From the NCBI GenBank assembly GCA_973895155.1, contig OZ316897.1, positions 17,890,457-17,954,456 on the forward strand: DNA of 64,000 nucleotides, written 5' to 3'. This stretch comes from Marsupella aquatica. Its lineage: Eukaryota; Plantae; Marchantiophyta. Below are positions 31,601 to 60,305 of the stretch, piece after piece. Made by a program: the position numbers and the translations under genes. How positions within the stretch are numbered: the first letter of the stretch is position 1; every line of letters starts with the position of its first letter. A model generated the notes under the pieces. That model was not told the DNA's origin and made no database searches. It saw nothing but the letters and a program-made list of their open reading frames with translations.

Positions 31601-32618
31601 GCAAGCTCATGCTATTTGAGTGTATGCGAACTCATAGACCACACACTCGATCTTCACTGTCTTCTCTCTTTCTCTTTCTAGAGCTATACCTATATTTTGC
31701 AATGTTCCTTGATACAAGAATCACACTCAAATTAATTAAACATCGATCTCCAGTCACTGAGGCATGATGACTGGCTTTAGGTACTTCTTGGCGCTTCCCA
31801 TCCATACCTTGCTTTGCACTTTTCTAATAGAAAACATTTCCATAGAAATGCATGTTAGAAATAAATCCAAAGCTCCAAATCCTTTTTCAATTTTCAGAAT
31901 ACTCTTAAGATGACCGGTAGCTACAACGCCCAAGGTCATCTCATGCCCTAATTCAAGCTTGTCATCTGAAGCAGCCTTCTGCCTTACAGGACCAGGAGGG
32001 AATCAAGGAATATAGATGTGAAAATCGGAAAATAAGCATTCCCCTAAGCATTAGACCTGAAATGTTGTTGTTAGGAGAGCAGCTACTGCAAAATTGAACA
32101 TGCATGTTCATAGTAACAAGAAACCATATATACGTAGATGTGTGGGGGAGGGTGATTAATTTGGAAGAGGAGGACGCAGTGTGGGAAGGACTAATGTTTA
32201 AACTAGTGCTAGGCCTGAGCTCTTCATAGTACTTTGTTTCAAATCTGTCATATGTATGGGTGACTGGACTGTGACTTGGTATGTTTCTGGAGATCCTATC
32301 AGCCTACACTCGTGATCCAGGCAGTTGATCAGTAAAAGCTGGAGGTAGGGTAAGTAGCTTGTTTGGGTAGGCGTGGCCAAATAAGCCACCAACCCAATAA
32401 GGGAATAAGATATTGCCTGAGTTGATGTTGCGTTAATTATTTTCCATTCAGTATGTAACTCGAACCCTAAATTATCCCTGAGTGTAGTTTAGTCGCACAT
32501 CACACTTTATTACCAATAGTACATAGTCAGTATACACCTTAGATTAATTAGCAACTGACGGCTGACAAGTTGGGTCTAGGTCTTACACTCAAGACGGGGC
32601 TGCAGTTTTCTCTGTTAG

Positions 32619-32627
32619 CTATAAAAG
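32619..32627 (+). promoter_or_regulatory. Candidate TATA box of the exonuclease gene
   Basis: CTATAAAAG, followed by a pyrimidine-rich leader and a strong donor CAG|GTAAG at ~32877. Confidence 0.4.
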
Positions 32628-33179
32628 GTTTCTCCGTGCCCAAGTTCTTTCTTACCTTCAGTATTATCTCTTCCTCCTTATTCACTCTGCAGCTTCAAGC
32701 AATCAGAGCTACGCAATCAGAGCGACTGCTGCGACAAAGTTAGCTAGCATCAAGATAACAGGACTCCGATTGGCAATCACAACTCCGATTTGGTTTTCTC
32801 TGGTGATTCCCTTAGCGGAGTGGGTTGGGCCAGAATCTTCACGCAAACAACGGGGCTACCTGGTTACCTTCAACAGGTAAGAGCCAATCACTTTCTTCCA
32901 ATTACACCATGCCTTCGAGATTTATTTTTATTGTATTTAATGGTCTCATCTCACTTTAATGAATCTTTGGCAAGAGAGAGGTCTATCTCTGGAAGGGTAC
33001 TTGCAAATGGTGTGTACAGATTTGGATCGATCCAAGCAACTAATTAATAGGGTTATCTCTTCACTAGCTAGTGAAAGTCAGCTGCCTAGTAAACCAGAGC
33101 TTGATAAGCTAAGAAGTTCCAAATAGACGGGTGGGTAGTTCCTCAGAATAATAAAGCTAATCAGCGCGCATTATCAAGG

Positions 33180-36100: not shown

Positions 36101-36510
36101 TAAGGTAGTTATATAATAGCTATTAATCCTAACCACCTATATTTTCAGGAAAAATTTGCCATTTGGTGAGAAAAAGACGAACCTCAAGCTTATGACACTT
36201 ATACATCTGGGTCAAAAAATCCAAGAAGCTTCCCACAGTCCGGTATGTGTGCTAAGATTTTGATCAGGTTAAACTAGTTAATTACATCACCGATATCTGG
36301 TACGTTGATTTTAAGTGAACCTACAACTCTTAATTAGTACTATATTATCCTACTTTATATGGAATGACTAGGAACTCGTGCTGAATAAGCTTAAATGATT
36401 GACTTTGAATGGGCTCATGCATTATGCAGGATGATGATGCAATTGCTACAATGCGTCTGTACCTGCTCTATGAGGATTGCATGAATGCTCAAGCTATATA
36501 TCAGCCTTGA
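33180..36510 (+). CDS. REX4/ISG20-like DEDDh 3'-5' exonuclease (N-terminus uncertain)
   Basis: Exons 34438-34492, 34647-34740 (AFSLDCEMVGV), 35058-35166 (NYFTWISGIT), 35477-35565 (ILVGHDIKKDL), 35904-35959 (HPMVDQRDT), 36149-36242 (LGQKIQEASHSP) and 36430-36510 (DDDAIATMRLY) splice in frame. All D-E-D-H-D catalytic residues are present. Confidence 0.88.
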
Positions 36511-36979
36511 TTGACTACAAGAAAAGACATCCATGATAGTCCCCATTTGGGCTTCCACGGTTGTGCCACTCCAGCCTGGGCGGATCCACCATCACCTGTG
36601 CCTAATCCACCCTTTGTGGCGGAGATTTTCCCATCTTTAACATGGCAATGGTATACATTCTACTAGATGGAGCTTAGGTGACCCGTTTGTAATGTAGGGA
36701 ATTGTGAGTGTCCTGCTGGGCTGTGCATAGGCTTTACCAGCTTTATTACTCCCACATTAACTAGAGTCTTTTAGAAAGTCTTCCTCTCCCATGCAAAGTG
36801 TGGCCGTACTATATATATACTGCATCCTGTGTAGATACAACATTTTTTCCAAGATGAAATTGCCGAAGACAACTGTGTGATGGGGACTACAATATTTGTT
36901 AGAATCCCGACAATATTTGTTAGAATCCGACATGTAGATATGATTTATAAATCTACCAGTCTGCACGCCTGTATGAGAA

Positions 36980-39260
36980 ACCGCTAGAGAGCCTCATATG
37001 TCATATTGTCCATGGTTTTGATGTCATTCCTAAAAATGAAGGCTCACGGCATTCCATAAATGACTTACACTTTTAGACATGTGCTCAAACGATACCAAAT
37101 TACTTTGCAAATGACCAAATGAGAGACTCTTGCACCCCTTTGGGAAAATCACTCCAAAATCATAGTTACAACTTGGGAGTGTTTTACCAAAAGTTGGGGA
37201 TGCTCTACTAAATGCCAAAAATGAGGCTCCAACAAAAGCGGAAAATCTAGTGGCCCAAGGTTCATGAGTTAGATATCCTGCTCTGTGTGGACTGGGTGGC
37301 AATAGCAATTTACAACACCCTACCCCTAGGTAGCAAATCATGTTTGGAAGGCCCAACACTGTCATTTTATGATGCGCACAAATGATGACTCTTTTGACCT
37401 AGAAATGACTTTTCCTGGAGTCATTTATGGATATGACATCTCTTGGCACTGAAAAAATGACGAGAAATTTCAGTCACATGCTTCTATGACACCAATAACC
37501 TAATTGACGCCACAAATGACAATAAAGTTTAGGGTTTGATTGAGGGGGTTAGGGTACTTGGTTATATGACACAAAGTTTTGCACAAATGGAAAAGTCTTT
37601 TGTTTTGTTGGCCTGCTTGGTTCCCTCCTCCGTGGAGTCCAGATGCGCGGGATACAAAGTTAACTGTTACCAAAAAATGGTCTGACTGCAAGCTCCAAGC
37701 CTGGATAACATATTGCACAAAGGCCTAGCCTTTGAAAATCAATACCACTTATGGATAGACAACACTTATTCCTTGGCATAGTAAAGAGGGAATAAATGGG
37801 TGTCAATTATGAAGCTGCTATATGTTGAATCCACCTTTCAGGTTTTGTCTTATTCAGATTTTATGTTCAATATTTTTATCTTAATGTGCCTAAACTAGGT
37901 GAATCATTTGAATTAATTTGATTTTAAATAAAATTTTGGACCCCTTTTAATTTTAGTGCACTTAGAATATTTTGAATGTATTCCCTTCATAATTGTTTAC
38001 TCTTTCCTTTTCAACCACTCCTTAGTGAATTATTAGTTTTCTCATGAGAGTGAGAGAAATGAGTTTGAACAATGCCCAGAACAATGTGCACATTTGGTGT
38101 ACTAAGTTCCCCTCCTAGTTTCTTATATAAACTTTGTACGGTTTTAATATATTGAGTTAATTGTCATTACCTAGAAGCAAGGGAAAATCTGTAGTGTATG
38201 TGCACAACTCTTTAGTACCTTTGTACTTTATTGGTCATAATGTATTTTTTATTGCATGTGTACTATGTCACTCACTCTTAATTAACATATATTAATTTCT
38301 TGGCATATACTTTACATGTACCTACTTTTTTATTAAAACATAAATGAATTACTACAAGGCAAAAACATCATCCTAGAACATGCCTCTGTTTTTGTCTTGT
38401 AGTGAATTATCTTGTAGACTTGATACACTTATTCTTTGGCATAGTAAAGAGAGAATAAATGGGTGTGAGTCACAACCCCCGTCACAACATAATCTATGTC
38501 TTACTTAAATGAAAGATAGGGCCACAATGAGCCACAATGAGTTTCCAACTGTAATTCCAAACTTGCATGTTATATGCCCACATGAAATATTTTACCTATT
38601 AGACACCATGTTGGATTGCTAGTGTTATTTCTATTGGGCTCCATACCACTATATGGTCATGTCAGGGCATTTGCTAGGGTTATTTCTATTGGGCTCCATA
38701 CCACAATATAGTCATGAGAAAAATACCAAAAAAACTATATAGTCATGTACGTCAGGGCATTTGCTAGTGTTATTTCTATTGGGCTCCATACCACTATATA
38801 GTCGATCATGTCAGGTCCCAAAACAGTCATATGTTGTTTTTGAGGTCATTTAGTATTGTTTCCAATATGACTAGTATGATCAAGTTTAAACACAGACTGA
38901 CATTTGTAGAGTTCTTACATAAGTCATTTGGCACCGTCGCCTGAAATGACTTCTTCAACTTAAAACACTGATACATATGACAAATCAAGTTTTTGCATTA
39001 TGTGTCATTCACGGTGACGGTTATAAATGACTATTATTTCAGAATCCTGTCATTTTGGCATTCCATGTCATTTGGGTCAGGTTTTTGAATAACTCCATTT
39101 TCAATGGTTACTAGTCATATCAGTTGTGCTGTTATTATAGACAGTCATTTGTATGACATTTTTGTGTTGTCATATATATATATATTTCTGTCAATCATTT
39201 ATATATATTCACATGTCATTTAATATGTCATGTCATAAAAGGCCCTATTTTCTATTAGTG
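36980..39260. mobile_element. CACTA-type terminal region (right end ...TTTCTATTAGTG) with dense ATGAC/GTCAT subterminal motifs
   Basis: TAGTG (reverse complement of CACTA) at 39256-39260, preceded by many GTCAT/ATGAC motifs at 38640-39240. A similar cluster lies at 36990-37530. Left end not securely identified. Confidence 0.6.
38350..38404. mobile_element. 55-bp minimal CACTA derivative
   Basis: TACTACAAGGCAAAAACA ... TGTTTTTGTCTTGTAGTG inverted repeats flanked by a 3-bp AAT direct repeat. Confidence 0.7.
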
Positions 39261-39945
39261 TGATTAATGCCCTCAAGAATTTGGCCAATGAGTAGAAATG
39301 TAATAATGGCTCCGTACCAAGTAGGCTCCCCCACTGCAACATGGAAGAAACTCGGGACCATAGAACTAGCTCATAATTTGTACACGAGTTTGGGGTATCC
39401 TTAGACCAGCAAGAAGCCAGTTTGAGAAAGTAAATGAAATGCTAACAAGCATTTCCAAAGGAGAACCCCTTCAAAATGTTCATATCAAAGGTTTTTTTAG
39501 GATGGAAACTCCGAATCTTCCTCCAATGGAATTCCTCGGTTTATTTTCAAGGTCTGAACTAGGTCAATTTCAAGAAGATGGGCACAATCTTGAGAAAGAT
39601 CAGCAAGCAAGGCTCATGGAAATGTATCGTGAAGCTTAGAGTTAGCTTGATTCCTGTACGTGCTTCCTAGTGTTTTGGTCTGGTCAAAGGCATGTCATAG
39701 TGGTCTTGTTTGTCGGCAAGGACGTTTGGCCAAGTGTGTTGAGCATAGACAACAACTGCAATAGCAAGCCCATAAACCATCCAATGCACAAGTATCAACA
39801 TCGAGAGATATACATGTGGTTCACCTTCGGGCCATGCTCAGGCGCTCTGTCCATGGGAATACACAATGGTCTAGAGTCTAGTGGTGTTGTTCCTAATGGC
39901 TATAATCTCCCGCAAAAAGTGTTTGGGATTTTCTCTATGCGGACC

Positions 39946-40914
39946 TCAATAGTCCCTTCCTACAAATGCTTTAGCAAGTGACGTGACAAGTGCATCGTCA
40001 AGTTCTGCCTCAGGACGTAAACTACATATACGATGCATCACGTTCCAAGGAATCTCATTGCTATTGAGGTCCAACACACTATGCGTAAACTGTGACTTCC
40101 AAATTTTTGTTGCACATCTCTTACTACGTTGATCATAAGTAATTTCATTTTTTACCTTGTCTCTCTTTATGTGCAATAGAGACCACAGTGGAGAGTTAAG
40201 AAGAAGATAACATCTAATGTCACTTGCATGGGATAGTTTCTCAAGACAAGGCCAAAGAATTGTTAGAAGAAAATTATCTCCACCATTGGCATGCGTGTAG
40301 GGCACTGGAAATAGTCTGGTCATGCTTGGGTTGGCAAATGCCTTAAGGGGGGAGTCATCCACAAGGAGGGTGTTGGCCCGGGTGTTGGTTTCATCATATA
40401 GATTTCCAAATCCACTCCATACCACCCGAAAATCCTTCAGTAGCACATTTGCCTTTCCGTTTGTAATGTCATGCCTTTGAATGCCTGTGTCAAAGGCTTC
40501 CACTTGTGTGAATACAAACTTAAGTTTCAACCGCTCCTCAGCAGTGAACATCATGTTCAGCATTTTCACTGTTCGATGTACCCCAGCACATGTCCAAATT
40601 GCAACGTCAAATCGGTCAAAAACCAACTTTAGAAACTCATGGAGCCCTGGCCTTTCTGTGTACATGCGACTAATTCCATTTTTTCTATCCCAATGCACTC
40701 CACTTGGGATCAAAAAATTTCTGGATTTGCCCTTGCTTTGGAATTCAACTGAATCCCAAAGTATTTTGTTAAGATCCAAAATCAACAATTTGCGCTTGAT
40801 GGAACAAGGTCTTGGTTTTGCAAGTGCAACAAATACCAATCTTAGAGATAAAACCACATTTGAAGTTTGGATAGAGATCATCTCTGTCAATCCAACACAA
40901 GTGGCCAACCACAA
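39946..40914 (-). CDS. FCP1/NIF-family HAD phosphatase-like protein
   Basis: RKLLILDLNKILWD (motif I variant), ERPGLHEFLKLVFDRFDVAIWTCA, LLKDFRVVW, NTLLVDDSPLKAFANP. Start uncertain; candidate acceptor at 40926. Confidence 0.85.
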   Translation of the reverse strand: MWLATCVGLTEMISIQTSNVVLSLRLVFVALAKPRPCSIKRKLLILDLNKILWDSVEFQSKGKSRNFLIPSGVHWDRKNGISRMYTERPGLHEFLKLVFDRFDVAIWTCAGVHRTVKMLNMMFTAEERLKLKFVFTQVEAFDTGIQRHDITNGKANVLLKDFRVVWSGFGNLYDETNTRANTLLVDDSPLKAFANPSMTRLFPVPYTHANGGDNFLLTILWPCLEKLSHASDIRCYLLLNSPLWSLLHIKRDKVKNEITYDQRSKRCATKIWKSQFTHSVLDLNSNEIPWNVMHRICSLRPEAELDDALVTSLAKAFVGRDY

Positions 40915-43515
40915 AGAAAATATATCTGCATACTGATCAGATTCATTGAGAAACCGTAAAGAGGAGATGGATATTGATACTGATGCTCTAATTGTTAAAC
41001 TTGAAGTATAATTATACAGACTATATTATATCAAATTGATAAGGTCACATCGCTCAATCTAGACCTTGGCTAACAATGCGATCCATATTCATCAATCAAG
41101 ATATCATCACCGAGTTCTTGTTGGATCTCATAATTGACATCGGAGGTACTCTCCTCTACCCAATAAGGTGCAGACCAAACCGGAGTTATCAATCCCAATT
41201 CTCCACTTCTATAAGTTGGATCTTTCTTGTGCTTTTTGTACGAGTCATTGTTCAAAATTGATTGAGCAGCATCCAACGCAACTTCAGTTCCTACATCGGG
41301 TCCACTTTTCCACACGTAACATTGACAATCATATTCAAGTGACTTATATCCAGTTGATCCTACTCTCTTCCCTTTCTTTTTTGAGAGTGGAAGGATAACA
41401 GGACTTCTTGATTGTGATCGAACAAACACCAATTTGTCATCAGAAGCGGAAAAGAGTGTATTGGGACAAATTGAAGCACCTGCCTGGTTGTCAGCAGTCG
41501 TGGATGCACTTGCTTCATTCACGGGAATGTCAGCTATTTGGATGGGCTGTGGTCTCAATCCCAATGTGTCGAGTTCATTGGACTCACCATGCCTCTCCGC
41601 ACCTTGATTGAGAAGGTTGTTTGAAGAAAGTTTTTCAAAAGTATCAACTTCCATCTCTTGTCCAGGCACTTGTGGATGGAGACCATCTCTATCCAAGTTA
41701 TCATCATATTGGCCCTCGTTGGGGCCCATGGGGGTAGCATCTATAATTGGTGAACTACAAGGTGCAGATCCAACAATCATATCGTCGTCCACAAGGTCAA
41801 TATTTTCACCCTCGCCAACTCGGTCATCCAAATTCTTCACGTATGCCTCTGATGGCCCATCGTCTTTGACTGATTGGTCAGCTCCATCTTCTTGATCACC
41901 ATCTGATTCATCCTCAATAGCAACAGTGGCAAAAGAGGGTTCCCAATGTCTAGAACTTCCACCGACATAGTGATCATAACGATCTTTGATGGTGGGAACC
42001 TTCTCACAAAGGAACGAAGCGTATGCTTCCACAAAATGTCTCTCATGTTGAGAGTCACAATAAACAAAACATTCACGTTGAGAAAAAAGGGATGCCTTCA
42101 TCACTTGACCGCCAGAGAAAAAGTCAAGAATCAAATCCCCCGGCTCGGACAGTGTTTGGATGATCTTTTGGATCATCCGTGTGGGTTTGGTGTGAGGATT
42201 CACCCACCCACCCCGAGCGCCGACAATCTCAAATCGAGGTGCCATGTGCAGAAGGATTGCCGCCTCTTCTAGGGTCATCATATTTTTTAGATCTTCATGC
42301 AATGACTCCTCCTCCGCGTCCTTGGCCTTTCCCTTTCCCTTGACCTTCTCAACCACGAAATCAGTATCCTTTTCACCGTACACCCATTTTGGCTTCATTT
42401 GGTTGGGCTTGAACACTTCATCCCAACTGACGTTCTCCTCGCGAGAAATTCCGGCAAAGATAACCTCTTCTATTCCTCCCTTCCAACATGAGTCCTGAGG
42501 GTGAGGTTGATCATCTCGGTAATAACTCCCATACTCAATGTGAATACTCAGAGTTTTTGAATGTCCTAATTTACGAAGAGCACTTAGGACATTCAGTACA
42601 AGATAACCCGGATGGACAGTTATCATCACAACAATGGTAGGATTCCGTGGTAGCTCTACTATATATTGGAAGAGGACCAAAATCTCTACTTCAGTCCACT
42701 CTTTTTGTTGAAGTCGGCTGAAATCAACAATTGCAAGAGGGCATGTTGGAGATTGTTCTTCCAACGACTCCGGATCCACAGTTTTCATTAGGTTGTTACT
42801 AAAAAATGTGACCCACGGCTGGGTCTGAGAACTTGTCCCACCGCCAAACTTTTGACAGTAAATATCATCTAGATGCATCACCAATGTCATTGGCAATATC
42901 TCACTCTCCTTTGTATGATTCGACTTCAACAAATTTGTCAACCATACATCGCCAGCTGCTCTTCGGCACCTGTTCAACTCCGAATCGGGACCCAATAATG
43001 GGAGGACTTCAATCACTTTAGCCCAATCAGTATCTGTTGGGAAGTGTTTTGGATCCTTCTTGAAGTAGTAATCTCCAATAAGAGACTTCAATTTGATCAA
43101 TATCTTCACCTCCTTTGCAAACTCCTCCATCGCTGGAACATCTGACTTATTAGTTGGATCTTTCTTCAATAAAATCTGACCCGACTTCACCTTGTTCAAA
43201 ATTCTGGTCAAATCTCTATTTGAGATTTCACCATCAAAACAACAAAACATGGCGACGGTTATCGGCTTTTCGGACCTTTTGTTTCCCTGTGTACTAGCCC
43301 CATCAGGAAGTTTTCCATCAATCCACATCTGGCACACTAACCGCCATAACTCGAAAAGATCATTCTCGGCAAAAAGTAACCAGTATACATTTTTCAAGTC
43401 TTTTCTCCCCATGGTCATCCTTGCCAATGCCAGATAATCCTACAGTCAAAAATTAGGGAGAATGTTGTAAGTTATCTACAATCAATGAGATTTGACAACA
43501 CACAATCGCTTGCTT

Positions 43516-43692
43516 GGACAGAGACCATCTCCGTCCAAGCCATAACCAAAAGTAGAATGAAGTAAAATCTACAGAATGGAAGGTCTCACTCTTGGACAGA
43601 GACCATCTCCATCCAAGTCATAACCAAAAACATATTGAACTAAAATCAATGTAACGGACGGTCACACTCTTGGACAGAGACCATCTCTGTCC
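43516..43692. repeat. Three 21-bp palindromes at 78-bp period in the ParB-MTase intron
   Basis: GGACAGAGACCATCTC(C/T)(G/A)TCC at 43516, 43594, 43672. Confidence 0.9.
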
Positions 43693-45398
43693 AAACAAGA
43701 AAAATGTTTCTCACCTGAAATTTTTTACTCTCTTGGGCGTTTGATTTGTTGTCCCCGTGCTTTGGCTTTCTTGGTCTTCCAGTTTCAAGGAATTGTTTTC
43801 TTGCATGAACAATTGTATCTTTGAAGCACGATTGAAACACCATCGAAGAATTGATGGCATTTGATCTCATTGAGTGCTCAACCAGTATAGCCGATGGCGT
43901 AAGGTCTGACAATAATCTAGCCTTCCTATATTTTAACTTTTTTGCCAAAACTGTGAGCTTGGCATCAGTTTTGGCCCACTCAAGAACCCATTTGGCCGCC
44001 CTAGCAGAATGTTGCCCACTGACGGCAAGGAAAACAATCTCGCCTCTCTTCACTCCTGCAAGAAGGTCTTTGCGGTCGTTCTCCGTGCTGTCAAAATGAA
44101 GCAGCTTTCTAAGTTTTGGATTGTAAGGAAGAAGGTCCGCAACGTGAGGTTCATGTCCAGGGTTTTTCACCATGGATTCGGCTATGTGCTTCACATGGGC
44201 ACTGTTGAGCATCCTGTAACATAACCTTGCCGGAGCTGGATAAATTTTCTCCACTGGAATAGAAAATATTTCATTTATCCCAAAAGTATAGTACTGCTCT
44301 AGTATTCTTTGGAGAACATCATTCCCTTCTAAGACCTTCTTCTCCTCCGGGGCATCAAGTTTGTCTCCCTCATCCTCTGGGAGCATCTGTACGTCCGTCG
44401 GAGTTGACCGCGCAATAGTCTTGTCAGTTTTATGGTTCTTCTTTACTGGCTTCTTCTCGGGTTCCTTCGACAGTGTCTCAGTTTTCTTGTGCTCCTTCTT
44501 CTCTCTTTGTCTTCGCTTCCCTACCACTTGTTTGGAGGCTGTCCCGGCCGTTGTTCCTGCAGTCCCGGTTGTTGTCTCCTGAGATATTTTTCTAGGCTTC
44601 GGAACTTCTTTGTCAACAACTACTGGAGGCTTGTTCACCACTACTGGTGCAACATTTGTAGGCTTGTTCACCACTACTGGTGCAACACTTGTAGGCTTGG
44701 GTAATGATTCTACCCACTTTTTTGCATTATCCATTGCAAACTCCTCCGCAAATATAATTTTCTTGTCAAGGAAAACACCTGATTCCGATGATAGGAATCC
44801 TGCCTTGTCAAGCAAATTATTTAAAATCCATGTCACCGGAAATGTATAATTCCCTTGGTGTTTATGCATATTAAGCTTCACATATTGAAACCCATACATG
44901 ATGTCAAGTGGAAGAATCCCCTTCACTCCAACAGTCACCTTTTGAGTTGAATACGACTTAGGGAAAAAGCCCATTGCCAACACGCCAAGTTCTCCAGCTG
45001 CAGACCACTCAACATTGAATTATGAAGAATACGCCTTTGATGGTAGATGTAGTTTAACCCATCATATCCTTTCATGGAGCTCAAGAATGACGGAAACAAA
45101 CACTCTTCCTTCAATTCCAATGAAGACTACAGGTCCGAGTACAAGAGTCTCCTGATCTGTAGTTCTGACCTTTATGCACAAAATGGGATCCCGTCTCGTT
45201 GACATGCTAAGGAAATCAAAATCAACTCTGGAGAACTCAAGGCCCCAACAAAAATCTTCTTTGCTCTGCTCCAACAAGACTCCCTCGGAGCAATCTGCGT
45301 CTGAAATCTGTGGTTTCAATGCATTTAGATAGCTCCCTGCAATAGTCCCATCTAGGCATATTAGTTTGGAAATCTTACTTTTGTAATTGACAAAAATT

Positions 45399-45733
45399 GG
45401 ACAGGGATCATCTCTATCCTCTATTTGGACAGCGATGATCTCTGTCCAATTTGTAATAAAGATCATCTCTGTTTGATGAGAGGATACTAACGATCGTTAT
45501 TATCATCTCTATCCTCTACTTGGACAGGGATCATCTCTATCCAATTCCTAATAAAGGTCCTCAGCATCGTCTGATAGGACATCCTCTATCATCAGTTTGG
45601 AAATAAATGATATCTATGCAATTGGACAGGGATGATCTCCATCCATTTGGATAGAGATCATCTCTGTCCAATTCCTAATAAAGATGGCTATCTTCTATTT
45701 GGACTCTACTTGGACAGGGATCATCTCTGTCCA
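45399..45733. repeat. Cluster of the 21-bp palindrome
   Basis: GGACAGGGATCATCTCTATCC-type copies at about 45399, 45427, 45522, 45623, 45649 and 45712, plus half sites. Confidence 0.85.
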
Positions 45734-47139
45734 CCACACAAATATTCAACTTGTTACTGGGATACTCACTTGGATTGAGCGATTGAAAGGCTCTGGAATC
45801 CTTGAGGGCCATCTCCACCACGTCCTCAATGGATGAGAGGTCTGTCTCCTCTGTTGGCTCACTGACGAGACACACTGGAATAGGTCTAGATGGCTCCATC
45901 GTGTGACACGTGGCCTTATGGACACGTGGAGGATTGCAGAGCGTTAGATCTAGGGCAATTAACGTGGCGGCTATGGGGATAAACTTTAGTGCGGAGGCAG
46001 AGCGAAGCAGTGCAGAGGCGTCGGAGCGAAGGAGATTGGAAGCGAATGAGGTGGAGGAGCGAGCAAAGGAGCGCAAGAGCAGGAGTGGAGAAGAGGAGGA
46101 GCGGACGGAGGAGGGAGGAGAGCGAGCGAGGAGCGAGGAGGGAATGAAGAATGAGGCCCAAGTGGGACCTCCTGCCTCCTTTACCCCCCCGAGGCGAGGC
46201 AAGGCACACTGAACACGTGGGAGGCCAAGGCGAGTGGAAAACCCTAAATGCATCAAAGTGCAGCGCCCGACCTAATCCACTCGCCGTTGCTTAAGGCTGG
46301 TCACGCATCGCCTTATCCATAAGGGTGATCTTCAACAACTGGTATAAGATACTTTGGGTTGTCCGGTTGGTCCTCATTTGGTATTTTCATTTCTAGATTT
46401 TTGTTCTGTTCCTCAACCAGGTCCGTTCATTACGGAGCCCCATTGAGACACTCTTGTTTTCCAGACAGAACATCTAGTTTTAATTTCTTCCACACCCCTG
46501 AAGCATTTAGTTTACCAGGTTACTGATAACTACCCCTTCAACACAGTATTTTAATCCTGGGTTTGACAACATAAACTAAATTGAGTTTTGGGTTCAAGAA
46601 TCATTTCCATTACAGGTAACTTTAAACCTAATTATAGAATTGTAGCATATTCCATTGATATCCACAAATTTAGGAATTGGTCAATTGCAAGCTTGAGGGG
46701 GGCGAAAAGGATATCCAATTTCTCCACCAAAAGGATTCTAGTCCTTCCCAATTTACAAGGGGTGGACAAGGTGTTACACCAAATGGCTAGGATTAGTTTG
46801 TTGAGATTGGATGGTGAGATCTTGCATGCCAAGTCTTTGGAAGTGTGTCCAGGATTTTAGGAAGTCCCAATCTTCTTGGAAGTGTGCACAACAATTTTGG
46901 AAGTGTGTCAAACCTTTATGGAAGTGGTGTTCAACTAAATCTTTATGATCTTTGAGTCCTTTTTCTCTCCTTTTTGAGCAAATCCTTTTTGCGTCCTTTT
47001 GCCCCCCTCAATCTTGCAATTGACCAATTACTATATCTAAGTTAAGGTTGAAGTGAAAAAATCCCAGCCCAACTCACGATTGGGATAATCTCAATCCAAC
47101 CGTTCTTTGCTCAAACATTAAATTAGTGTGTAGAGTCAA

Positions 47140-47790
47140 TTGTCCGTACAGGGGTCATCCCTGTTTGCTATCTGGATAGGGATCATCTCTATTTGCTGTT
47201 TGGATAGGGATGATCCTTGTCCAATATTTGGATAGGGATGATCCCTGTCCACCGTAGAGTACTGTAGAGGACCATATGAACTATAGCACTTTATTGGATC
47301 CTCTACAGTTTGGATCCTCTGGTTGGATAATGATCCGTATTCGCCGTTTGGATCCTCTGGTTGGATAATGATCCGTATTCGTTGTTTGGATGGGGATGAT
47401 CCCTGTCCGCCATTTGGATAGGGATGATCCCTGTCCACCATTTGGATAGGGATGGTCCCTGTCCGCCGTTTTGATAGGGATGATCCCTATCTACCCTTTC
47501 AATAGGGATCCGTGTCCGCGGTCGTTCTCCGGATGATCCCTGTCCGCCGTTTGAGGTATTTGCTTGATTGGACCCCAATATGAAAAGTTTCCTTGAATCA
47601 TCCCTGTCAGTTGTTTGGACAGGGAATAGACCCGATCCACCATTTGGACAGGGATCAGGCGTGTCCGCCTTTTGGACAGTGACAGACACTATTCGCCGTT
47701 TAGGCAGGGATGATCCTTGTTCGTCGTTTGGACACTGACAGACCCTATCCGTCGTTTGGACAGGGATCATCCCTATCCGACGTCTAAATT
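47140..47790. repeat. Array of the 21-bp palindrome GGAYAGGGATSATCCCTRTCC with ~7-bp spacers (28-bp period)
   Basis: For example TTGGATAGGGATGATCCCTGTCC-ACCAT-TTGGATAGGGATGGTCCCTGTCC-GCCGT; well over ten variably degenerate copies. Confidence 0.9.
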
Positions 47791-47970
47791 GGGATCAGGG
47801 ATCTTAGGGCTAGATAGGGACTTTTTGGGGACCTATTATTTTGCTTGATGGGGATAATCCCGATATGCGCACTGTCCTTGGAGAGCGTTGACACCTATGT
47901 GCTTCCTAGTTGGGACCATTCTTAACTAATACTTTACATTTAAAATTGTGCAGGTGAATACGTTATAGGA

Positions 47971-50900
47971 ATGACCGGAATATTTTTTAGAGGAGACAAT
48001 GTGATATTGACAAATGATGGTTACGATGTTGCAAGCGGGACAGTTCAAAAAGTCAACCCGCAAGATAGTGTTCAAAAGATATTGTTGAGAGAGAATCGAA
48101 TGGGAGTTCTCATTGAGAAAGTTTTTGACCGAAGCACAAAACTACCATTTCCGATGCCTCGGGCACAAAACCTTTTTGATGCCATTGATTCTTGCGTTAT
48201 TTGGGATTTGTCTTGCGCATATCTATCAACGACAACAAATTCTCAAAAATGCATTAGTGTAGGTAGTTGTTCAAATAGACCCGAGAGTAATTTGGAGAAA
48301 AATCCAATTGTAGAGGAGGACTCATCGACCACTCCGAGGCAAGGGGATGAGGTTGAAATGTTCATCTTTGGGTATTGTGTAGCCCTTGGAGTTGTTTTCA
48401 ATACAAATCCAATGGAAAGATGTCACAACATTTTACTTGGTGAATCACGGATCAGTGTGAGGGTCACTGATGTCATTCATGGGAGTAGGGTTTTACCTTA
48501 CAAACACAGTGGGGCTGAAACAATTGACAAGGCAAAAGACTCATGGGTTCTCTGGGACGTGGCAGATATCCAAAGTAGAAAGAGTTTCTCAAAGAAGGAT
48601 GCGGGTGATGATATCAACATAGAGCGGAGTTTTGTTGTGGAGTCTCCCTTAGCTGAAATTTCTAAAACTAATTGTGACTATTTCCAACGGTCAAATTGGA
48701 TGTCAGAGTTGGTCGAACTATACATCGGTTCAGATCGAACCAATAGGGTTGCCACGGGGACCATCACTGTGCCTCAAGAAATGGTGGCGGTTGACGATGA
48801 AATGCTTGGTGAGGACCATGTAGGGATTGCTGTGAAAGATGTGGTGAAATCACAATACTTTCCCAACTTCCATAGGGGAGTAATTACTTTGGTTCGGTGG
48901 CAAATTGATTCAACAAAACTACTTGCAAATGGGAAATTTTTGTCGGACATTTTGGTTGAAGGTTCAGAGAGGATGGAGTCGGTGGATAGGGATGATCTCT
49001 ATCCAAATGTAAATGATAGGGGAATGCTGCGCACAAGGCCATACAATTTCAACAAGAGGACTCATGTAGATCCGATTGAAAAGAAGAGAAGGCTATTGGA
49101 AACCAAGGCAGTTTCAAAAACAACGGAAGCTTTGATTGATGAAATTAAAAGAGAGAATTGTTGCAAGCAGAAATGTTGTCTGACTATGCCAAGAGAAGAC
49201 ATAGAAGATATTCGGATAGAATTTCACGGGATGTCTAGTGAGTCAAAAACATCACACATTTTCAACCTCTTCCACTACAGAGAAGATGATGTTCGTGATA
49301 AGGGGCACCATGTTCTCAAGGGTATGGTCGTATGTAGACATGCATTTGCAATCATCCATGGCTTTAGCCACACAAAATATTATGACTACAAAAGGAGATA
49401 TGTGGAGGGCTGCAAAATTGGGTTTCATGGAAACACGGGCTCCATGAAAACAAGGTCAAATACCTTGCATGCACGAGCTCTGTTGGAGGATTTTTTGACT
49501 CAAAATGCAGAGCCCATGCCTCATATACCTTATGCTGGGGCTCATGGGACAGACTCCACTGAATATCGTCTTCCAGCATGTTACAAGAAGCTGAAGATTT
49601 TGGAAGATGTGAGAACAAAGATGAAGGAAGAGGGGCTTCCTCCAGTTACAGAGAATACTCTGTACAAGATTTGGAGCAAATCATTTGCAAACTTCAGTTT
49701 CCATAAAGATGGTGCATTTGCCAAGTGTACTCTTTGTTGTGAATACAAAGATAGTTTGATGCAAGAAAGAAGGAAAAAAGAACGTGCTGAAATTGAAGAA
49801 AAACGAGCGCAACATCTTCGTGAGCAAATGTCATGTAGATATGTTTACTATGCTCATCGAGTGATGGCTAAGCAACATCCAAGGGAATATCTTTGCATCA
49901 TTCACGACAAGATGGATCAAGCAAAGACGTGGATTCCAAAAATGGTCAGTACTCCTAAATCGCTTTCGGGTCATGGGATGCCGCTACCTATTGCTCTCAT
50001 AGGGATGTTGACCCACGGAAGGGATCCAGGAGTCTATGCACACTTTAGTGTCACTGGCCTTTGGCCAGGAGATGCCGATTTCACGGTGACATCCTTGGCT
50101 AAGTGTCTTCGAGACCTTGAAGAGTACAATGGAGACAAGACAGGTGACATGTTGGATGGCCTTTATTTGGAACCTCATAGACCTTTCTTTCAAGCCCTTC
50201 TTGACTTTGATGCATTTTTTAAGGGATATTTGGAACCAAAGAGTATTCCAATGAATAGGTATATTGGTTATGAAGATGCAGCCGAGAGTCAGACGGAGAC
50301 GGTCTCCACCCAACTTGGTGAGGATCAAGGAGGGGACATGCATGGGGAACAAGGCAGTCCATCTTTCAAGCCCTTGCCAAGGCACCTAACATTGCAAATG
50401 GATAACTCAGCAAAGGATAACAAAAACCATACTGTCATGGCATTTTGTAGTGAGCTTGTGAGTAGAGGAGTATTTGAAACTGTTCAAATGTCTTTTCTTA
50501 TGGTTGGTCATACACACGAAGATGTTGATGCACTCTTTTTGAAGGTATCATATCAAGTTCAGCACAAGGAAGTTGCAACTCTCCTTGCTCTTATGGCAGA
50601 GGTTTGGGAATGTGAGAGCATTCATCCAGTTCCCAGATTGATACAAGAAGTTGCATCTTACAAAGAATATCTTCAAACTTTCAACGTTAAAGATATTCAA
50701 GGTCACTCAAAACCTGTATCATTTCTTTTCTCTATGAGAGATAATGTACCAATATTTCAGTATAAGTCCCATGTAAAGCAAGCTTGGGCTCCAATTGGTG
50801 GAAGGTGCATTTGGGCAACAGATCTGACAACAAATTCCCTTCTTTTACCTAGTGGAGAGCCCTTAGCTAAATCCATTGGAGAGATACACAAAAAATCTGA

Positions 50901-51714
50901 AGAGATTATCCCATTTCTTACCAAGTACTTTGATTTTTTGAGAAGGAGTTGCACTGATGAGACATCTATAGCATATAAGGAAAGATTTCCTCTTGTGAAA
51001 TATTGGGAGAGAATTGTGGAGTTGTTGACAAATGGGCTTGCACTAGAAGGGGAGGGAAGTACTCAATTTCCCTTGAAAAATGGATTTTGGCCTAAGACTA
51101 ACCATGGCACTGGTTACAAGGTCAACCAACCAGATCAAAGTGATCCTCCAAGTGAAGATGAGGAGAATGCGGAGATGACGGCTCTTCAAAATGAGGTCTT
51201 GGAAGAGACGGAAGATCAAGCGGCACCATTTGTTGGATCTCGAGCTGAGAGAGAACAAGGACGGTGGATTCCCCTACAGGATATTTGTCAAGGGAACTTT
51301 GTATTTCTTCGACCCGAGGATGATTGGGAGAATAAAAATGGTGGAGGTCATTTCTGGTTGGTGAGAGCTTTGGGTTCGGTTGACCCTAAGCATGAAGTCC
51401 CAACTACATCTCCAACAAACCCTCCTCTGCCTCAACAATATGCTCCAATGTTTCCAGTCGAATGGTGGAGGCCTAAACACTCTAAACTTGATGTGACTGA
51501 GAGTGCACGGTATCTAAACTGCTTCATGTCCACTAAGACATGGGAGTGAGATCCAGGGTTTGGTGAGAACGCTCAACATTGGCAGTATGCAAATTTTGCA
51601 ATGTATGGTTTTAAATCTGGCATGAAAGAAGAAAACATGGCGGGCAGAGGTTTGAAGATTCCTCAAAATATTCTACAAACTATCCAAAGTTATCTCCAAA
51701 GGATGGACAAGTAG
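47971..51714 (+). CDS. Sola-type DDD transposase with three N-terminal Tnp1/EnSpm-like repeats; TGA at 51547 probably premature (frame stays open to TAG 51714)
   Basis: CCKQKC..VCRHAFAIIHG, FAKCTLC..H, LCIIHDKMDQAK, LTLQMDNSAKDNKN and SFLMVGHTHEDVDALF are transposase core motifs. The frame continues 54 codons after the TGA (DPGFGENAQHW...QRMDK*). Confidence 0.75.
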
Positions 51715-51959
51715 ACTTAGTTGTTACTTGTAAAGCTATAATAATTATTAAATAGATAGTTACTTAGATAGTAACAAGTACCTACTAGTTATTTACTATT
51801 TTAATAGTTTTAATGTGAGACCATGCCATTGAGTGTTAGTTATACTATCTCCTCATTTTCTAAACTTTTGATTGTTATGAATATGAATGTTTGCTTTTTT
51901 TGCATAATTAAAAATATTTTTCTATTCATTCCTTTCTTTTAAATGATTATAATAAGAGT

Positions 51960-52317
51960 TGGTACACTTTTTAGGCCAAATGTACACTTTGTTGCACTCA
52001 AAGCTACACTTTCTAGACCAAATGCACTTAAATGTACACTTTTAAAGCCAAATGTATGTTTTTTTCACTCAAATGTACACTTTCTAGGCCAAATGTACTC
52101 AAATGTACACTTTTAAAGCCAAATGTACCTATTTTGATGTTCAAATATACACTTTTCATTGCCCAAATGTACACTCTTTAGGCCAATTGTACACTTTTCT
52201 ATCCCCAAATGTACACTTTTCATTGGCCAAATGTACACTTTTTCAAGCCCAAAAGTACACTTTTCATTGCCCAAATGTACATAAATAAAATAATAATACA
52301 CTTTTAATGAATAGGCT
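51960..52317. repeat. Subterminal tandem AAATGTACACTTT repeats and candidate right terminus
   Basis: More than 10 copies of (CC)AAATGTACACTTT. Ends ...ATACACTTTTAATGAATAGGCT, the reverse complement of 61154-61180. Confidence 0.75.
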
Positions 52318-52320
52318 GAT

Positions 52321-52440
52321 TCTTGTGTATTCCTATGGACGTAGCCTCATGTGGAGGTGAACCACGTATCTCTCTGTGTCGACTATTGTGCGTTGGATGG
52401 TTCATGGGCTTGCCGTTGCGAATGTCATCTTTGCTCAACA
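52321..52440 (+). repeat. 5' LTR (3' ~120 bp only)
   Basis: Matches ~60184-60305 (GGACGTAGCCTCATGT.GAGGTGAACCAC...TTTGCTCAACA). Confidence 0.9.
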
Positions 52441-52442
52441 AG

Positions 52443-52454
52443 TGGTATCAGAGC
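52443..52454 (+). promoter_or_regulatory. Primer-binding site for tRNA-iMet
   Basis: TGGTATCAGAGC two bases after the LTR end. Confidence 0.9.
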
Positions 52455-54110
52455 ATGCCTGGGAGGTGATGAGGTTTTTTCATGATGGGTTTTTTCCAGC
52501 ATTCATTATCGGTGATACATTCGGAGTTTTGTCGAATGAAACTCGAATGTGTGTGGCTGAGCGGATAGGTTAGTGAGAGGGCTTTCTAACGGTGGTTAGA
52601 ACTTGTTGATCGGTATCCGTGGTGCGGAGGAATTGAAGTTTGCATTGTTCAGGGTTTATTCATGTTCGACGGTATTTCGGGGGAGAGACCATAGATTGTT
52701 TTTTTAACGGTGTGAGCTGTGCGGTGCGGGAAATGTTGCATGTTATAGCTCAAGTTGAAGGTTGAAGCGAGCTGGTCGTTTTGGTACCTGGTTTGCTGGC
52801 GTTTGTGGAGCGAGTGCGTCGTGACGAGTGAAAGTTGAGCTCTAGTTTTTTTGACAAGTTATGGTGCATGTTTTTCCCTGAACTGGATTACTCGTCGTGA
52901 TGCTTGACTCGGAGGAAAAATACGAAGTGCTGAGGCTCAACGGAGAGATCGTGGTAAGGCGATCGTTTAGAGTCCGGGATTGGCTCTTGACGCAGAGAGA
53001 GTAAGACATAGCAGAGGTTTTTTCTTCTCTGGTGGAGTTGTAGATGTGCCGGTGCAATTTGGCAACATTTTCATGTCGGCGGTCATCACTTTTCTCATTG
53101 AAAACCAAAACGGAGGCGGTTGAGGTTTGTAACACGGCCTTTGTGTCATTTTTGGGCACATTTTAAGGTTAGTTTAGAGCATTTTTTGCCCCCATACGGC
53201 CTGTATACCTTCAAATCCTTACAAACCTACTTCACCATATGTCTCGGTGCGTTCCCCGGCCTTCCACACCCCTTTAAGCGCAAAAATGTGCTTTTTCTTG
53301 TGAAAATATGGCCCAAAATGCCATTATACGGCCCACATACGCGCGTTTTGACCCCTTTAAACCCCGTTTTTTCACATTTTTTGCAGTTTATACGCGAATA
53401 CATGCGCTTTTTTGAGGGGCTTTAAGACCCCTTTAAAGTGTTTTTTCTGATTTTTTTCTCTCCTCCTCATTGGTTGTGCCGCATCCCGGGCTCTGTGACC
53501 CTCCGTTTTAACCGCTTGGATAGGGGGAATGGCCCCCTGTGAGACCTGTTGGACTGTGCGGAAATATTCCCAAAAAATAGAGAGATGTTTTTTGGCCGTC
53601 CAACAAAGATTCCATCCACCGAAGGATAACTTTTTTGTTTCTTTTTTGGCGAGGACGTTGCCACTGGAGTTAGCAACGCGGCGCATCGATCACATCGCAA
53701 TTCCGACGAAGGGTTATTCTCCGAGGTGGTCAAAATGGGGGAGCTTTCCAAGGTTTTACCCACCTCGATCAAAATTTGAATAACTTTTCCGTCAAATTTT
53801 GATTTTGATTTTGGCTTTCAGTATTGGACTCCTAGCTTTGTGGGCTACGCGGCGGTGTTGAGTTTTGAGTTTTATGAGAAGTTTTGAAAAAGATGTTTTT
53901 TCGTGATTGTTTCATATGAGTGACTTGGAGGATACTGGAAGAATTGGCGTCGGTGGAGCTTCAAGATCGCGACAATCAGACGGAGAGTCTGAGGAGGAGC
54001 TGCTACCGTTTGAGGATGGACTAGTGTCACCGGTATGATCACCGGTGCGGCGTGCAGTGGAGGAAGCTGTACTACTACCAGAGCTATCGGTAGTGGGGAA
54101 GAAGAGGGAG

Positions 54111-57100
54111 ATGGCTAGATTTGGAAGAGTGAAGTTTGAGGTGGAAAAGTACGATGGTCGTACTGATTACTTGCTCAGGGAGAAGCAAGTGAAGGGTGTT
54201 CTGCGGGCCATGGGCTTAGCTCATCTGCTCTCTTTGCGAGAGTAGTATGATGGAGAGGAGGAGATCTCAAAGAAGCAGTCTGTGGAGATAGGAGCAGGTG
54301 ATTGTTGTCAATGTAGTGATGCTATATCTCAAGCCGCATATCATCAAGAAGCTAGATGATTATGATGACTGTGCATCACTATTCATGGCTCTAAGAGAAA
54401 AGTACTACCGAGAAGATGCGTCAGACCGGCTATACAAAAAATTTCTCTTGATGAGCCTTAGGCTCAAGGAAGGGAGCAAGATGCAAGATCACCTGGATGA
54501 GTTTGACAGTCTAGCGGTGGATCTGTCAAACCTGGGAAAAGGAGCTGAAGATGAGGGTAAGGCGGCCTTGCTTCTGCTAAGCTCCTTATCGCCGTCATAT
54601 CAGGGCTTGAAATAGATGCTCTTGTATAGAGATTTGAAGTCCATTTTGTATAATGAGGTGGTGAGCTTCTTACTGTCTGATGATGCTCAAAAGAAGCTGG
54701 ATCAATCACAGACAACATCTTCTTAGACCTGACACTGCGCTGAACGTAAATCGTGGGAGAGCTGCACAACGCTCAAGTGGACAGAACAGGTTTAGATCTA
54801 CATCACGGGGGAGATCTAAATCCAGAGTAAAATTGCAAGAGAAGAAGCCTCTTGCATGTTGGAAATGTGGCAAGTCAGGCCACATGAAGAAAGATTGTCG
54901 GGTAAAGGACTCTACCCCATCAGCTAATGCGGCATCTAGCGCACATGAGGTAGATTTACTCGATGATGATATTTTGTGATGCCATTACTTTGCCCTCAAC
55001 GTAATATCACATCAGGGGGAGATGATGGTTGGATACTAGATAGTATTTGTAAACAAGGAGCAAAAAAGGATGGATAACAAGCCCAAACTAAAAGAACTTT
55101 TGTTCCAAAAATGCAAAAAACTCAGAAATGCCCAAAAATGAACCTAAATACTATCTCTTTCTTTGCAAAATCTTCATGGATGGAAAAAATGCCCCAAAAT
55201 ATGTTATCATTTTGAGCCATTCAAAAGATAAAATGGACCATAACAAATTGTTAATCTTTGTATGATCTATTTTCAATCTTTACAATTTACACTTGCACAT
55301 GTTCAAGAGATCATTTGTCTAGTTTATCCTTAAAATACCATCTTAAAATTGATTGGAATCAAAAATATCTAATTAAAACACTTTCAAATATATACTAGAA
55401 ATTTCAATTGAGTCTCGTAATGAATTGTTTGTCTTTAACCTATCTCACACAAACCAATTACAATATTATTATTTTCAAAGTGTAACCCCTCCTTAGAAAT
55501 GATTCATGAATTCATGAGTTAATCATTTTAATATTTTTGAATCTCAACAAATTTAAGTAGCAATAGTTACTCCAACTTTCTCATTCCCAAATCTCTAATG
55601 TTCACATAAGTTTTAGTGGATTGGAATACTTATTTGCATTCACTTAGAAAGAAACTTCATTCTTAATTTTTAATTCAAACCTTGCATAGTAAAATACCAA
55701 AGTTTTCCTAGCATTTATAATACTCTTTGTCTTTATTGGAGTTGATGTTTTCTTGTACTTTATTCCAAAGTAATAATTCATTACTCTCTTTGTCTTTACT
55801 TGAGTTTGTGTTCCTTGTCAAATTCTTCATTCATAACTCTTTTTGTCTTAATTGAATCATTTTTTGTTTCTTTTTTTGTCATTTTCTTTGTCTTGATTAA
55901 TCTTTCTTTTAATTATTTTCTTTATGTTTGTATGCAATTTTTCTCTCTTTTCAAGATTTCCAAACTTGATGCCAGATTCCCTTCATGAATTCATGAAAAA
56001 GAATCTTGGATCAAGATTAAAAAATCTTGAAAACAGGGTTCATGAATTCATGAAGCTTTTGGATGCACAAGCTTCGTGAATACACTAAGCTTAGGTTTTT
56101 AAAAGGCAAAGGGCAAATTTGGGCAACAACAATCCATGATGGAAGATGAGTGAGCTATGATAGGCACATTGCAATGGGCAAGTTGCGACCAGCTGCGATG
56201 GACAAAATGACAACATGTAACCCGTAAAGGGTATAGGACCATGTGCAATTAGCAATTAAACATAGATTTCCAAGGGCATTTGAGTGTTGATTTGTGATGG
56301 GTGAAGGCTTATGATCTCTGATGTTGTTAGTGACTTTGTTCATAAAGATGATATTTTCTTGTAACATTTAATTTGTTGGTGATCTTTGAGCCCAAACTCC
56401 AATGTTGAGACTTATATTGAGGAGTTAAATTTGGAATTATTAATTATGAAAAAACTTGTGTCTGAAGTATTGTGTTAATTATGGTGTGAAAATCCAAGGT
56501 CAGGAAATATTAAATATATGATGATTTTTTGTGTTATTTTTTATGACATTTTGGAAAATCAGAATATTTTGAAAATGAGAATTAAGGCCTTGGACCCATC
56601 CTTTAAGGCTTCTTGTTTGTACCTTTCACATTTGCTATAGGAGAGAGTTTTTCAGTTCTTACACGATTTCCAACGGTTCAGTGTTGATGGGAAATGGAAT
56701 TCCATGCCAAGTAGTTGGACTTGGATCTGTGAGATTACAGATGTTTGATGGTGTTGTAAGAACAGTGCGAAATGTGAGACATATTCCTGACATGATGAAA
56801 AATCTTATTTCACTTGGAATGTTAGAAGCAAATGGTCATTAGTGGAGTTCTGCTAATGATGTTCTTCAGGTTTCAACCGATACCAAGGTTATGTTGAAGG
56901 GAAAGAGGCACAAAAATTTGTATGTTTTGGAGGGCAGAGTGGTATGTGATGAAGCCAATATAACCTTATCTCATGAGGAGACGGCCCGGCTGTGGCACTT
57001 CCGGCTAGGTCACATGAGTGAAAAAAGTTTGGCTGTACTTTTGAAAAGAGGTTTGATTTTTTAATTTGCAGTCTAGTAAGTTAGATTTTTGTGAGCATTG

Positions 57101-59743: not shown

Positions 59744-59958
59744 TTGTAGTGCAAGTAGAGTTATTTAGCAATGTGTGATTATTTGTATATATGGATTACT
59801 CATTCCTGTTTGGCTACGGCTTAGTTCTAGTTAACCCTTAGTTAACCCTTGTGATTTTTAGGGGGAGACCTGGTTTGGTGATTGTCTAGAACTTCCCGCT
59901 GAGTATTCCATATGGTTGCATTTAGTCCAGTCCCCAAGACAAGAGTCAAGGGGGAGTT

Positions 59959-60305
59959 TGTTAGATATTGCTCTAGTCTTGTGACTCATGAGCTAACCAC
60001 AGTTAGTTTAACTCGGGTTAGGACTTAGCTAAAGTTAGCGGTAGTGCTATTGTGTATATAGCCAGGGCTGATGCCATACCCTGGTGAAACTTAGGCTCAT
60101 TGTTATGGAGCTAGTTGAGAGATAGGGAGAGCTTGTGCTGTGGATGCTTGATATGGCCGGTCGGCCTAGAGTGCAGTAAAGCTCTTGTGTGTTCCCGTGG
60201 ACGTAGCCTCATGTAGAGGTGAACCACCGTGTATCTCTCTGTGTCGACTATTGTGCGTTGGATGGTTCATGGGCTTCCCGTTGCGAATGTTGTCTTTGCT
60301 CAACA
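59959..60305 (+). repeat. 3' LTR (347 bp)
   Basis: Begins TGTTAG after the PPT and ends CAACA. Confidence 0.9.

Follow-up and report, generated by a model that had tools for sequence, protein, structure and literature searches.

The stretch of Marsupella aquatica DNA analysed here (the window, 64,000 nt) contains a repeated element whose three genes occupy 39.9–51.7 kb: a transposase gene on the forward strand and, on the reverse strand, a gene fusing a ParB-like to a methyltransferase (MTase)-like domain and a NIF/FCP1-like gene. The original prediction, drawn from the sequence alone, had placed the transposase head-to-head with the other two genes, and this layout was confirmed by the open reading frames (ORFs) and by Pfam. 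A 25 bp palindrome recurs within the element. Comparison with contigs from public runs and with gene models of the liverwort Riccia sorocarpa supported the view that a single repeated cassette comprises the three genes together with the palindromes. The copy in the window is dead and decayed, with three nonsense stops, two in the fusion gene (45,064–62 and 45,022–20) and one in the transposase gene (51,547–49), approximately 55 codons early. The broken state of these two genes had passed unremarked in the original prediction.

The transposase and accessory genes

The DDE-type transposase gene (47,971–51,715, forward strand) was assigned to DUF7869 by Pfam (E=8e-41, ORF 47,944–51,549). With residues 380–1000 as query, 51 relatives were recovered, of which 24 were named R. 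sorocarpa models, the best being 44–51 % identical. Over 30 aligned transposase sequences, D-N-x4-N-K-N and G-H-T-H-x-D-x-D were invariant (the window reads G-H-T-H-E-D-x-D) and an upstream H-D-x-M-D was near invariant (H-D-K-M-D in the window). These motifs make up a DDE-type core with a conserved acidic triad. A profile search of solved structures gave no match for the transposase. From its motifs and the literature it is putatively of Sola type. The N-terminus (47,971–48,980) consists of a self-similar domain repeated threefold (tblastn), for which relatives carry PF26133, and is a possible DNA- or chromatin-binding module. One DUF7869 transposase model from Riccia (P0241, R1sor_024984) extends into a different sequence resembling N6_N4_Mtase (E=6e-4), for which the profile match to the MTase family of the window was weak (probability 31 %); DUF7869 transposases may thus carry a second methylase-like cargo.

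The fusion gene (reverse strand) comprises 1,373 codons in three exons according to splice prediction. The first coding exon (45,770–45,899, ATG at 45,899) is predicted from splice signals and frame only, and is followed by a predicted GT-AG intron of 433 bp (intron 1, 45,337–45,769) that keeps the frame. The middle exon (43,715–45,336) encodes a conserved N-terminal domain, a basic linker and a ParB/Srx-fold domain with the motif SGQHS, and contains both nonsense stops of the gene. Removal of the second predicted intron (intron 2, 43,440–43,714, 275 bp, GT-AG) also keeps the frame, and the junction coincides with naturally fused relatives (P0002, P0008 and P0022). The last exon (41,070–43,439) encodes a predicted helix-turn-helix, a helical domain, a beta-class amino-MTase fold, an acidic linker and a conserved C-terminal domain. 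Natural fused relatives (P0008 and P0247) carry ParB and MTase in one protein, in agreement with the splice prediction, and relatives of the fusion gene match upstream to about 45,300. Folds, GT-AG intron and fused relatives therefore bear out the spliced ParB-like and MTase-like gene that had been predicted. The region at 45,900–47,050 is presumed from its position to be a promoter shared by the two divergent genes and contains a 44 bp inverted pair (46,668–46,711 and 46,994–47,036).

The ParB part was modelled by AlphaFold with a predicted local distance difference test score (pLDDT) of 89. Its structure matched PadC, KorB and pNOB8 ParB at Z 7.3–7.4 (for PadC and KorB, Z 7.4, root-mean-square deviation (rmsd) 3.0–3.2 and 93–98 residues aligned), with 7.4 lying in the range that the search tool calls common, and the top eight rows were all ParB/Srx-fold proteins. 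Foldseek returned Noc and ParB from the PDB (E 1e-3 to 1e-2), as well as phage ParB proteins with E values as low as 3e-5. A ParB domain was not recognized in Pfam and PHROGs scans, and a profile search of solved structures with this domain gave low-complexity matches only. Modest in score and consistent in family, the matches point to an N-terminal ParB/Srx fold, common to ParB, Noc, PadC, KorB and fungal DUF3723-like proteins. The window family differs from these ParB/Srx-fold proteins in its SGQHS motif, present in 33 of 46 aligned rows, and in the absence of Arg at the fifth place (0 of 46). The CTPase clamp of ParB carries an arginine-rich GxxRxxA motif. With the positional equivalence of SGQHS to this arginine motif inferred, a CTP clamp function of the ParB-like domain is not supported by the motif. 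In an atlas search, look-alikes of the ParB part (43,700–44,401) were eukaryotic, in fungal clusters, some with DUF3723, which suggests that DUF3723 proteins are eukaryotic, ParB-like relatives of this domain.

The MTase-like exon matched Pfam N6_N4_Mtase (E=4e-6) and M.RsrI (E=1e-5), and its AlphaFold model (pLDDT 85) matched CcrM at Z 17.5 (rmsd 3.4, 217 residues aligned), with unrelated folds at Z 5. The fold and motif order (IV ... X-I) of the beta-class amino-MTases are present, as in CcrM, M.RsrI, M.MboII, M.PvuII and the bdelloid N4CMT. However, whereas the canonical motif IV of amino-MTases is (D/N/S)PP(Y/F/W), the window reads DFSR at this position, which was assigned from the strand order of the structure model. 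Among the 36 rows with letters there in a 50-row MTase alignment, the motif IV Asp was kept in all and PP[YFW] was found in none, the variants being DFSR (10), DFGR (4), DFTR (4), DLTH (3), DFAR (3) and others. Motif I, the S-adenosylmethionine (SAM) site, reads DFFSGG in the window and is one residue shorter than that of M.RsrI; it was exactly DFFSGG in 24 of the 33 rows with letters there and a variant in the others. Both the SAM-site motif and the motif IV Asp were conserved down to about 20 % identity. The original prediction had the fusion protein mark DNA with N4-methylcytosine (4mC) or N6-methyladenine (6mA), a claim that the absence of catalytic motif IV from all 36 aligned sequences leaves unsupported. 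A metagenome scan gave one locus, 1.8 kb long, that held the MTase alone and lacked the palindrome (closest match 9 mismatches), and there were no relatives among 29 pattern matches in viral contigs or 68 in prokaryote contigs, a short-pattern search that provides weak evidence. A similar state appears in the available text of Iyer et al. 2016, which lists ParB-linked MTases and DIRS1-borne MTases termed likely inactive; the MTase part of the window resembles the latter (PMC4738411).

The NIF/FCP1-like HAD-fold gene (39,946–40,878, reverse strand, start codon and 3′ end uncertain) contains a NIF domain at 40,212–40,790 (Pfam E=8e-14). Its product was 37 % identical to the NIF part of R. sorocarpa R1sor_016354, and NIF was present in 30 of 30 matches when the atlas was searched with the protein. 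FCP1/SCP phosphatases of the C-terminal domain (CTD) carry the motif DxDx(T/V). In the window, motif I is a non-canonical DLNKI (motif IV, DDSP), and in two Riccia models (P0140 and P0155) it is DVEGL. These replacements leave unsupported the earlier identification of the third gene as an RNA polymerase II (Pol II) CTD phosphatase. Judged by their motifs, all three accessory domains appear to retain their folds and to lack the canonical set of catalytic residues. Among the look-alikes of the NIF protein (40,150–40,878) listed from the atlas, two of three were mostly giant-virus (Nucleocytoviricota) clusters, which is a lead on origin only.

Palindromes and recurrence of the cassette

The palindrome TTGGAYAGRGATNATCYCTRTCCAA (25 bp, 12+1+12, with GAT-N-ATC at its centre) was present in 24 copies at ≤6 mismatches between 40,867 and 49,006, and no further copy at this threshold was found elsewhere in the window. 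The family was recovered by de novo repeat finding. Nineteen copies had ≤3 mismatches, compared with 0 in 100 shuffles, the consensus for this test being derived from those same copies. The original prediction had correctly described a palindrome that recurs here and is absent from the rest of the window, and its right limit (49.0 kb) held; its length of 21 bp and its left limit of 41.7 kb did not. No exact palindrome was found in viral contigs.

Predicted introns and the region upstream of the transposase contained 21 of the 24 palindromes, with seven in intron 1, three in intron 2 (within a 78 bp tandem repeat) and eleven upstream of the transposase ATG. The latter form an array with a 28 bp period (47,075–47,780), possibly within a 5′ intron ending at 47,953. 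The others are isolated copies at 40,867 (over the predicted NIF start), 41,672 (in the MTase exon) and 48,982 (in the transposase); these keep 9–10 of 12 pairs, and two lie within coding sequence. The predominantly non-coding placement fits the needs of a self-targeting regulator. The observed/expected CpG ratio was 0.26–0.69 in the element interior, with its peak in the array ahead of the transposase, 0.24–0.51 in the flanks and 0 in the 3′ repeats.

Contigs from four public runs of two studies, among them X2 and X4, were compared with the window. In all 28 bins across 39,842–52,320 the summed depth was at least 421 (X2) and at least 2,047 (X4), against depths of 17 (X2) and 34–38 (X4) for exact unique contigs immediately to the left of the element. 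Depths were similar among individual contigs covering the MTase, the transposase, the ParB exon or the 3′ repeats (248–455 in X2 and 1,100–2,570 in X4); although contig depth cannot be read as copy number, it identifies a single repeated block. The NIF and MTase genes are bridged by an X2 contig (40,759–41,109, depth 359, three differences), and an X4 contig of depth 2,114 joins 40,882 to 41,069. At position 45,022, within the second stop of the fusion gene, all placed X2 and X4 contigs differ from the window. From the contig differences listed, 33 of 45 coding differences alter the residue, which is about the level of neutral decay for what is a small, tool-selected share of all differences.

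In R. sorocarpa, model R1sor_025532 contains ParB, MTase and NIF in the same order as the window, and R1sor_016354 contains MTase and NIF. The look-up covered 25 of approximately 160 ParB/MTase matches, picked as likely Riccia-type, and 23 models were counted. NIF sequence lies behind the MTase in four of the 23 (two of these by NIF motif I), all four being predicted models of one subfamily. The nearest transposase was within 1, 3, 5, 7 and 12 tags for 1, 2, 4, 5 and 6 of the 23 models, compared with expectations of 0.14, 0.32, 0.51, 0.68 and 1.1 (p=0.13, 0.04, 0.0016, 0.0005 and 0.0005, respectively), given at least 56 listed transposase tags, one cluster being listed for 15 of its 21; a circular-shift control agreed. 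The other 17 models had none within 12 tags among the transposases listed; gaps in the lists, fragments or genes carried by other elements may account for this. In one adjacent pair, R1sor_018197 and R1sor_018196, the latter is the top-scoring Riccia relative of the window transposase. The predicted co-occurrence of the three genes is thus upheld by the repeated block, the Riccia gene order and a transposase proximity above chance; the shared terminal inverted repeats (TIRs) and target site duplications (TSDs) that were part of the prediction were not found.

Element ends and neighbouring repeats

The repeated element extends over 39,880–52,316 in the window copy, with a left end that is probably truncated and an inferred right end. 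Its shared sequence begins at about 39,880, as judged via 31-letter words, because in runs X2 and X4 alike the unique single-copy contigs end at 39,910. The left limit of 39,261 originally proposed was abandoned, since single-copy contigs run through it to 39,910 and a CACTA end and a long terminal repeat (LTR) piece lie there: 39,244–39,260 resembles, by eye, the right terminus of a CACTA element, and the LTR piece occupies 39,737–39,866.

The right end (51,957–52,316) consists of 22 bp tandem repeats with a AAATGTACACTTTT core and a terminal 15-mer. These repeats are counted within the element because their contig depth matches the rest (363 for the X2 contig across 51,814–52,179 and 359 for the NIF–MTase contig), and on this ground their interpretation as a separate miniature inverted-repeat transposable element was dropped. 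The terminal 15-mer (52,301–52,315) recurs exactly in inverted form at 61,156–61,170, where it precedes similar repeats. This second end (61,156–61,450), with an identical 15 bp terminus and similar 22 bp repeats, may be a left end belonging to an element that is related or non-autonomous. A search for a left-end partner of the right-end 15-mer, and a comparison of inverted 16-mers between 38.9–40.8 kb and 51.5–52.3 kb, gave no terminal pair, and no element ends were among the rows listed in the contig loose-end tables. A 74 bp inverted pair (39,737/52,367) was ruled out as a TIR, both arms being LTR pieces; the left arm is covered by single-copy contigs, and the right arm is followed by a primer-binding site and is 92 % like the Copia 3′ LTR.

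Beyond the right-end 15-mer lie the final 120 bp of a Copia 5′ LTR that lacks its first part. The element is taken to have inserted into an LTR and to have lost its left end later. The Copia-type LTR retrotransposon concerned (52,321–60,305; gag, zinc knuckle and reverse transcriptase) has interrupted coding frames and a very high contig depth; its 3′ LTR is complete, and its 5′ LTR is reduced to the last 120 bp. The element is flanked by the 3′ parts of related LTRs (39,737–39,866 and 52,321–52,440) in opposite orientation, cut at a near-identical LTR position; a preferred target together with two insertions that recombined could explain this, as could chance. Further features lie to the left. 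A repeated stretch at 37,000–39,260 has a CACTA-type terminus, short subterminal repeats and a low CpG ratio (0.24), and its left end was not found. A broken CACTA-type transposase (Transposase_21, E=5e-11) is located at 867–5,237 (reverse strand). Short spliced exons at 27,700–36,600 (forward strand), with single-copy depth at the 3′ end, resemble by eye a host DEDD exonuclease gene (REX4-like).

Proposed role of the accessory proteins

The combination of a Sola transposase with a ParB–MTase protein and the hypothesis of self-binding have already been published for Ectocarpus and Bostrychia. As described in the text of the Ectocarpus study, Sola1-1_Ec32 (21.5 kb, 282 bp TIR, 4 bp TSD) carries an opposite-strand gene of 1,104 aa with ParB-like and N4C/N6A MTase domains, and its transposase best matches Physcomitrella Sola1-1 (PMC12477816). 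The authors propose self-binding and self-modification, and cite similar proteins in green and red algae, with Iyer et al. 2011 as the green-algal source (PMC12477816). Likened by domain content, the window element also has a ParB-like and MTase gene opposite its transposase, with a predicted 1,373 aa compared with 1,104. It differs in coming from a land plant, in its third gene (NIF), in its internal arrays of a 25 bp palindrome ('palindrom' and 'phosphatase' occur 0 times in the main text of PMC12477816), possibly in the loss of catalytic motif IV across the plant group aligned here, and in that a TIR pair and a 4 bp TSD were not found for the window copy. In the available text of the Bostrychia preprint, a Plavaka cassette includes PAG3, a ParB-domain gene beside tandem inverted-repeat arrays, and PAG2, an N6-methylase-domain gene; self-binding is proposed and VANDAL compared (bioRxiv 10.1101/2025.02.11.637652). 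The ParB accessory gene with inverted repeats and the methylase-domain gene in the cassette resemble the window, but the transposase is of the EnSpm/Plavaka type, ParB is fused to a 2-oxoglutarate oxygenase, the methylase-SET protein is a separate gene and a NIF gene is not reported in that text. The VANC protein of Arabidopsis VANDAL elements is an element-encoded anti-silencing protein with activity shown in the source text (PMC5735166). Its targets are likewise tandem repeats in non-coding element parts (21 of 24 palindromes in the window, a likeness of anatomy only), but superfamily and protein are different, with no Pfam family shared in the Pfam scan; VANC activity is demonstrated whereas that of the window protein is predicted, and the window targets are long palindromes. 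No land-plant member, NIF gene, disarmed active sites or intronic site was found in the literature covered, most subscription journals and Repbase being outside its scope, and the available text of the R. sorocarpa genome paper (27,626 genes) does not mention Sola.

The interpretation favoured here, tentatively and at a little under an even chance, is that of a multi-copy plant DNA transposon, represented in the window by a decayed copy, whose ParB/methylase-like protein binds its own palindromes as an element-specific regulator, probably in anti-silencing, and is not an active methylase. Binding, regulation and catalysis by this protein are proposals from folds and motifs. A dimer would read the palindrome via the predicted helix-turn-helix that follows the ParB fold, and several dimers would load beside the shared promoter, on both sides, at the arrays that lie upstream of the transposase and in the two introns, keeping the genes of the element active. 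The methylase fold, with its SAM-site motif kept and the DPPY base-binding motif lost, would be a non-catalytic module for dimerization or for binding DNA or cofactor; the NIF protein would act as a co-factor whose phosphatase activity is weak or absent, and the proteins would be provided in trans by intact copies located elsewhere. The self-targeting module of the original prediction is retained in so far as sites are placed in non-coding stretches of the genes that the element itself carries, although it was not a new idea, given the algal precedents.

Several observations weigh against this interpretation. The helix-turn-helix is predicted from two short AlphaFold helices and a conserved sequence pattern at the start of the last exon, and the alignment of this region and junction against solved structures returned M.RsrI only and no ParB; the Z score of the ParB part is, as noted, in the common range. 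No single contig covers the element from end to end or links the fusion gene to the transposase. The NIF-bearing Riccia models are confined to one subfamily, and 19 of the 23 models had no transposase within 5 tags among those listed. Element CpG is not clearly above that of the flanks, so a sequence sign of protection is missing. Finally, a SAM-site motif so strictly conserved could point to genuine catalytic activity of an unusual kind.

An unlikely, though not negligible, alternative is that the accessory protein binds the palindromes for transposition, by bridging or bending the 12 kb element, or represses the shared promoter in the manner of KorB, a ParB-family repressor acting at palindromic operators. 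KorB ties for the top fold match of the ParB domain, the arrays lie on both sides of the shared promoter with one site overlapping the predicted NIF start, and three accessory domains without canonical catalytic residues are what a structural or repressor role predicts. However, the right end has its own 22 bp repeats suited to the transposase, and simple repression does not need an MTase fold and a NIF gene kept over liverwort-scale divergence. It is rather improbable that the fusion protein is an active non-canonical amino-MTase, placing 6mA or 4mC on the palindromes or the element or acting on another substrate, with NIF as an active phosphatase of the Pol II CTD or of chromatin. The beta-class fold is complete, the SAM-site motif and motif IV Asp persist in distant relatives, the palindrome centre is GAT-N-ATC and 4mC or 6mA is what the text of the Ectocarpus study predicts for its protein (PMC12477816), but PP[YFW] is missing from all 36 sequences at motif IV, motif I falls one residue below the length in M.RsrI and motif I of NIF reads DLN or DVE instead of DxD.

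There is little to recommend the view that the palindromes are transposase binding sites or functionless amplified repeats, with the accessory genes acting elsewhere or not via these sites. Many copies did arise by local tandem duplication, with periods of 28 and 78 bp, yet the dispersed single copies at 40,867, 41,672 and 48,982 have kept most of their pairing, even within coding sequence; the palindromes are also internal and not subterminal, and red-algal elements pair a ParB gene with inverted repeats likewise, as the preprint text describes. A chance nesting of unrelated mobile pieces at this locus has been largely refuted and is scarcely credible: the region is full of nested elements and TIR pair and TSD were not found, but multi-copy cover is uniform and contigs bridge genes, Riccia keeps the same gene order and one palindrome is common to all three genes.

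The algal ParB–methylase elements are candidates, as hypotheses, for a second anti-silencing system. The M. aquatica element provides a land-plant member, a defined 25 bp candidate site and relatives in an annotated liverwort genome, that of R. sorocarpa. It adds a NIF gene to the cassette, predicts binding without methylation and would correct, at least for the plant branch, the published expectation of 4mC/6mA writing. More speculatively, and with doubts that outweigh it, this may be an old land-plant transposon lineage in which a three-part, disarmed prokaryote-style cassette serves as a second, VANC-independent anti-silencing machine, reading an intronic 25 bp palindrome and possibly sensing SAM and decoying partners of the host CTD phosphatase. 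If the protein is a true anti-silencing factor, it would offer an epigenetic tool that acts sequence-specifically on a target both long and rare.

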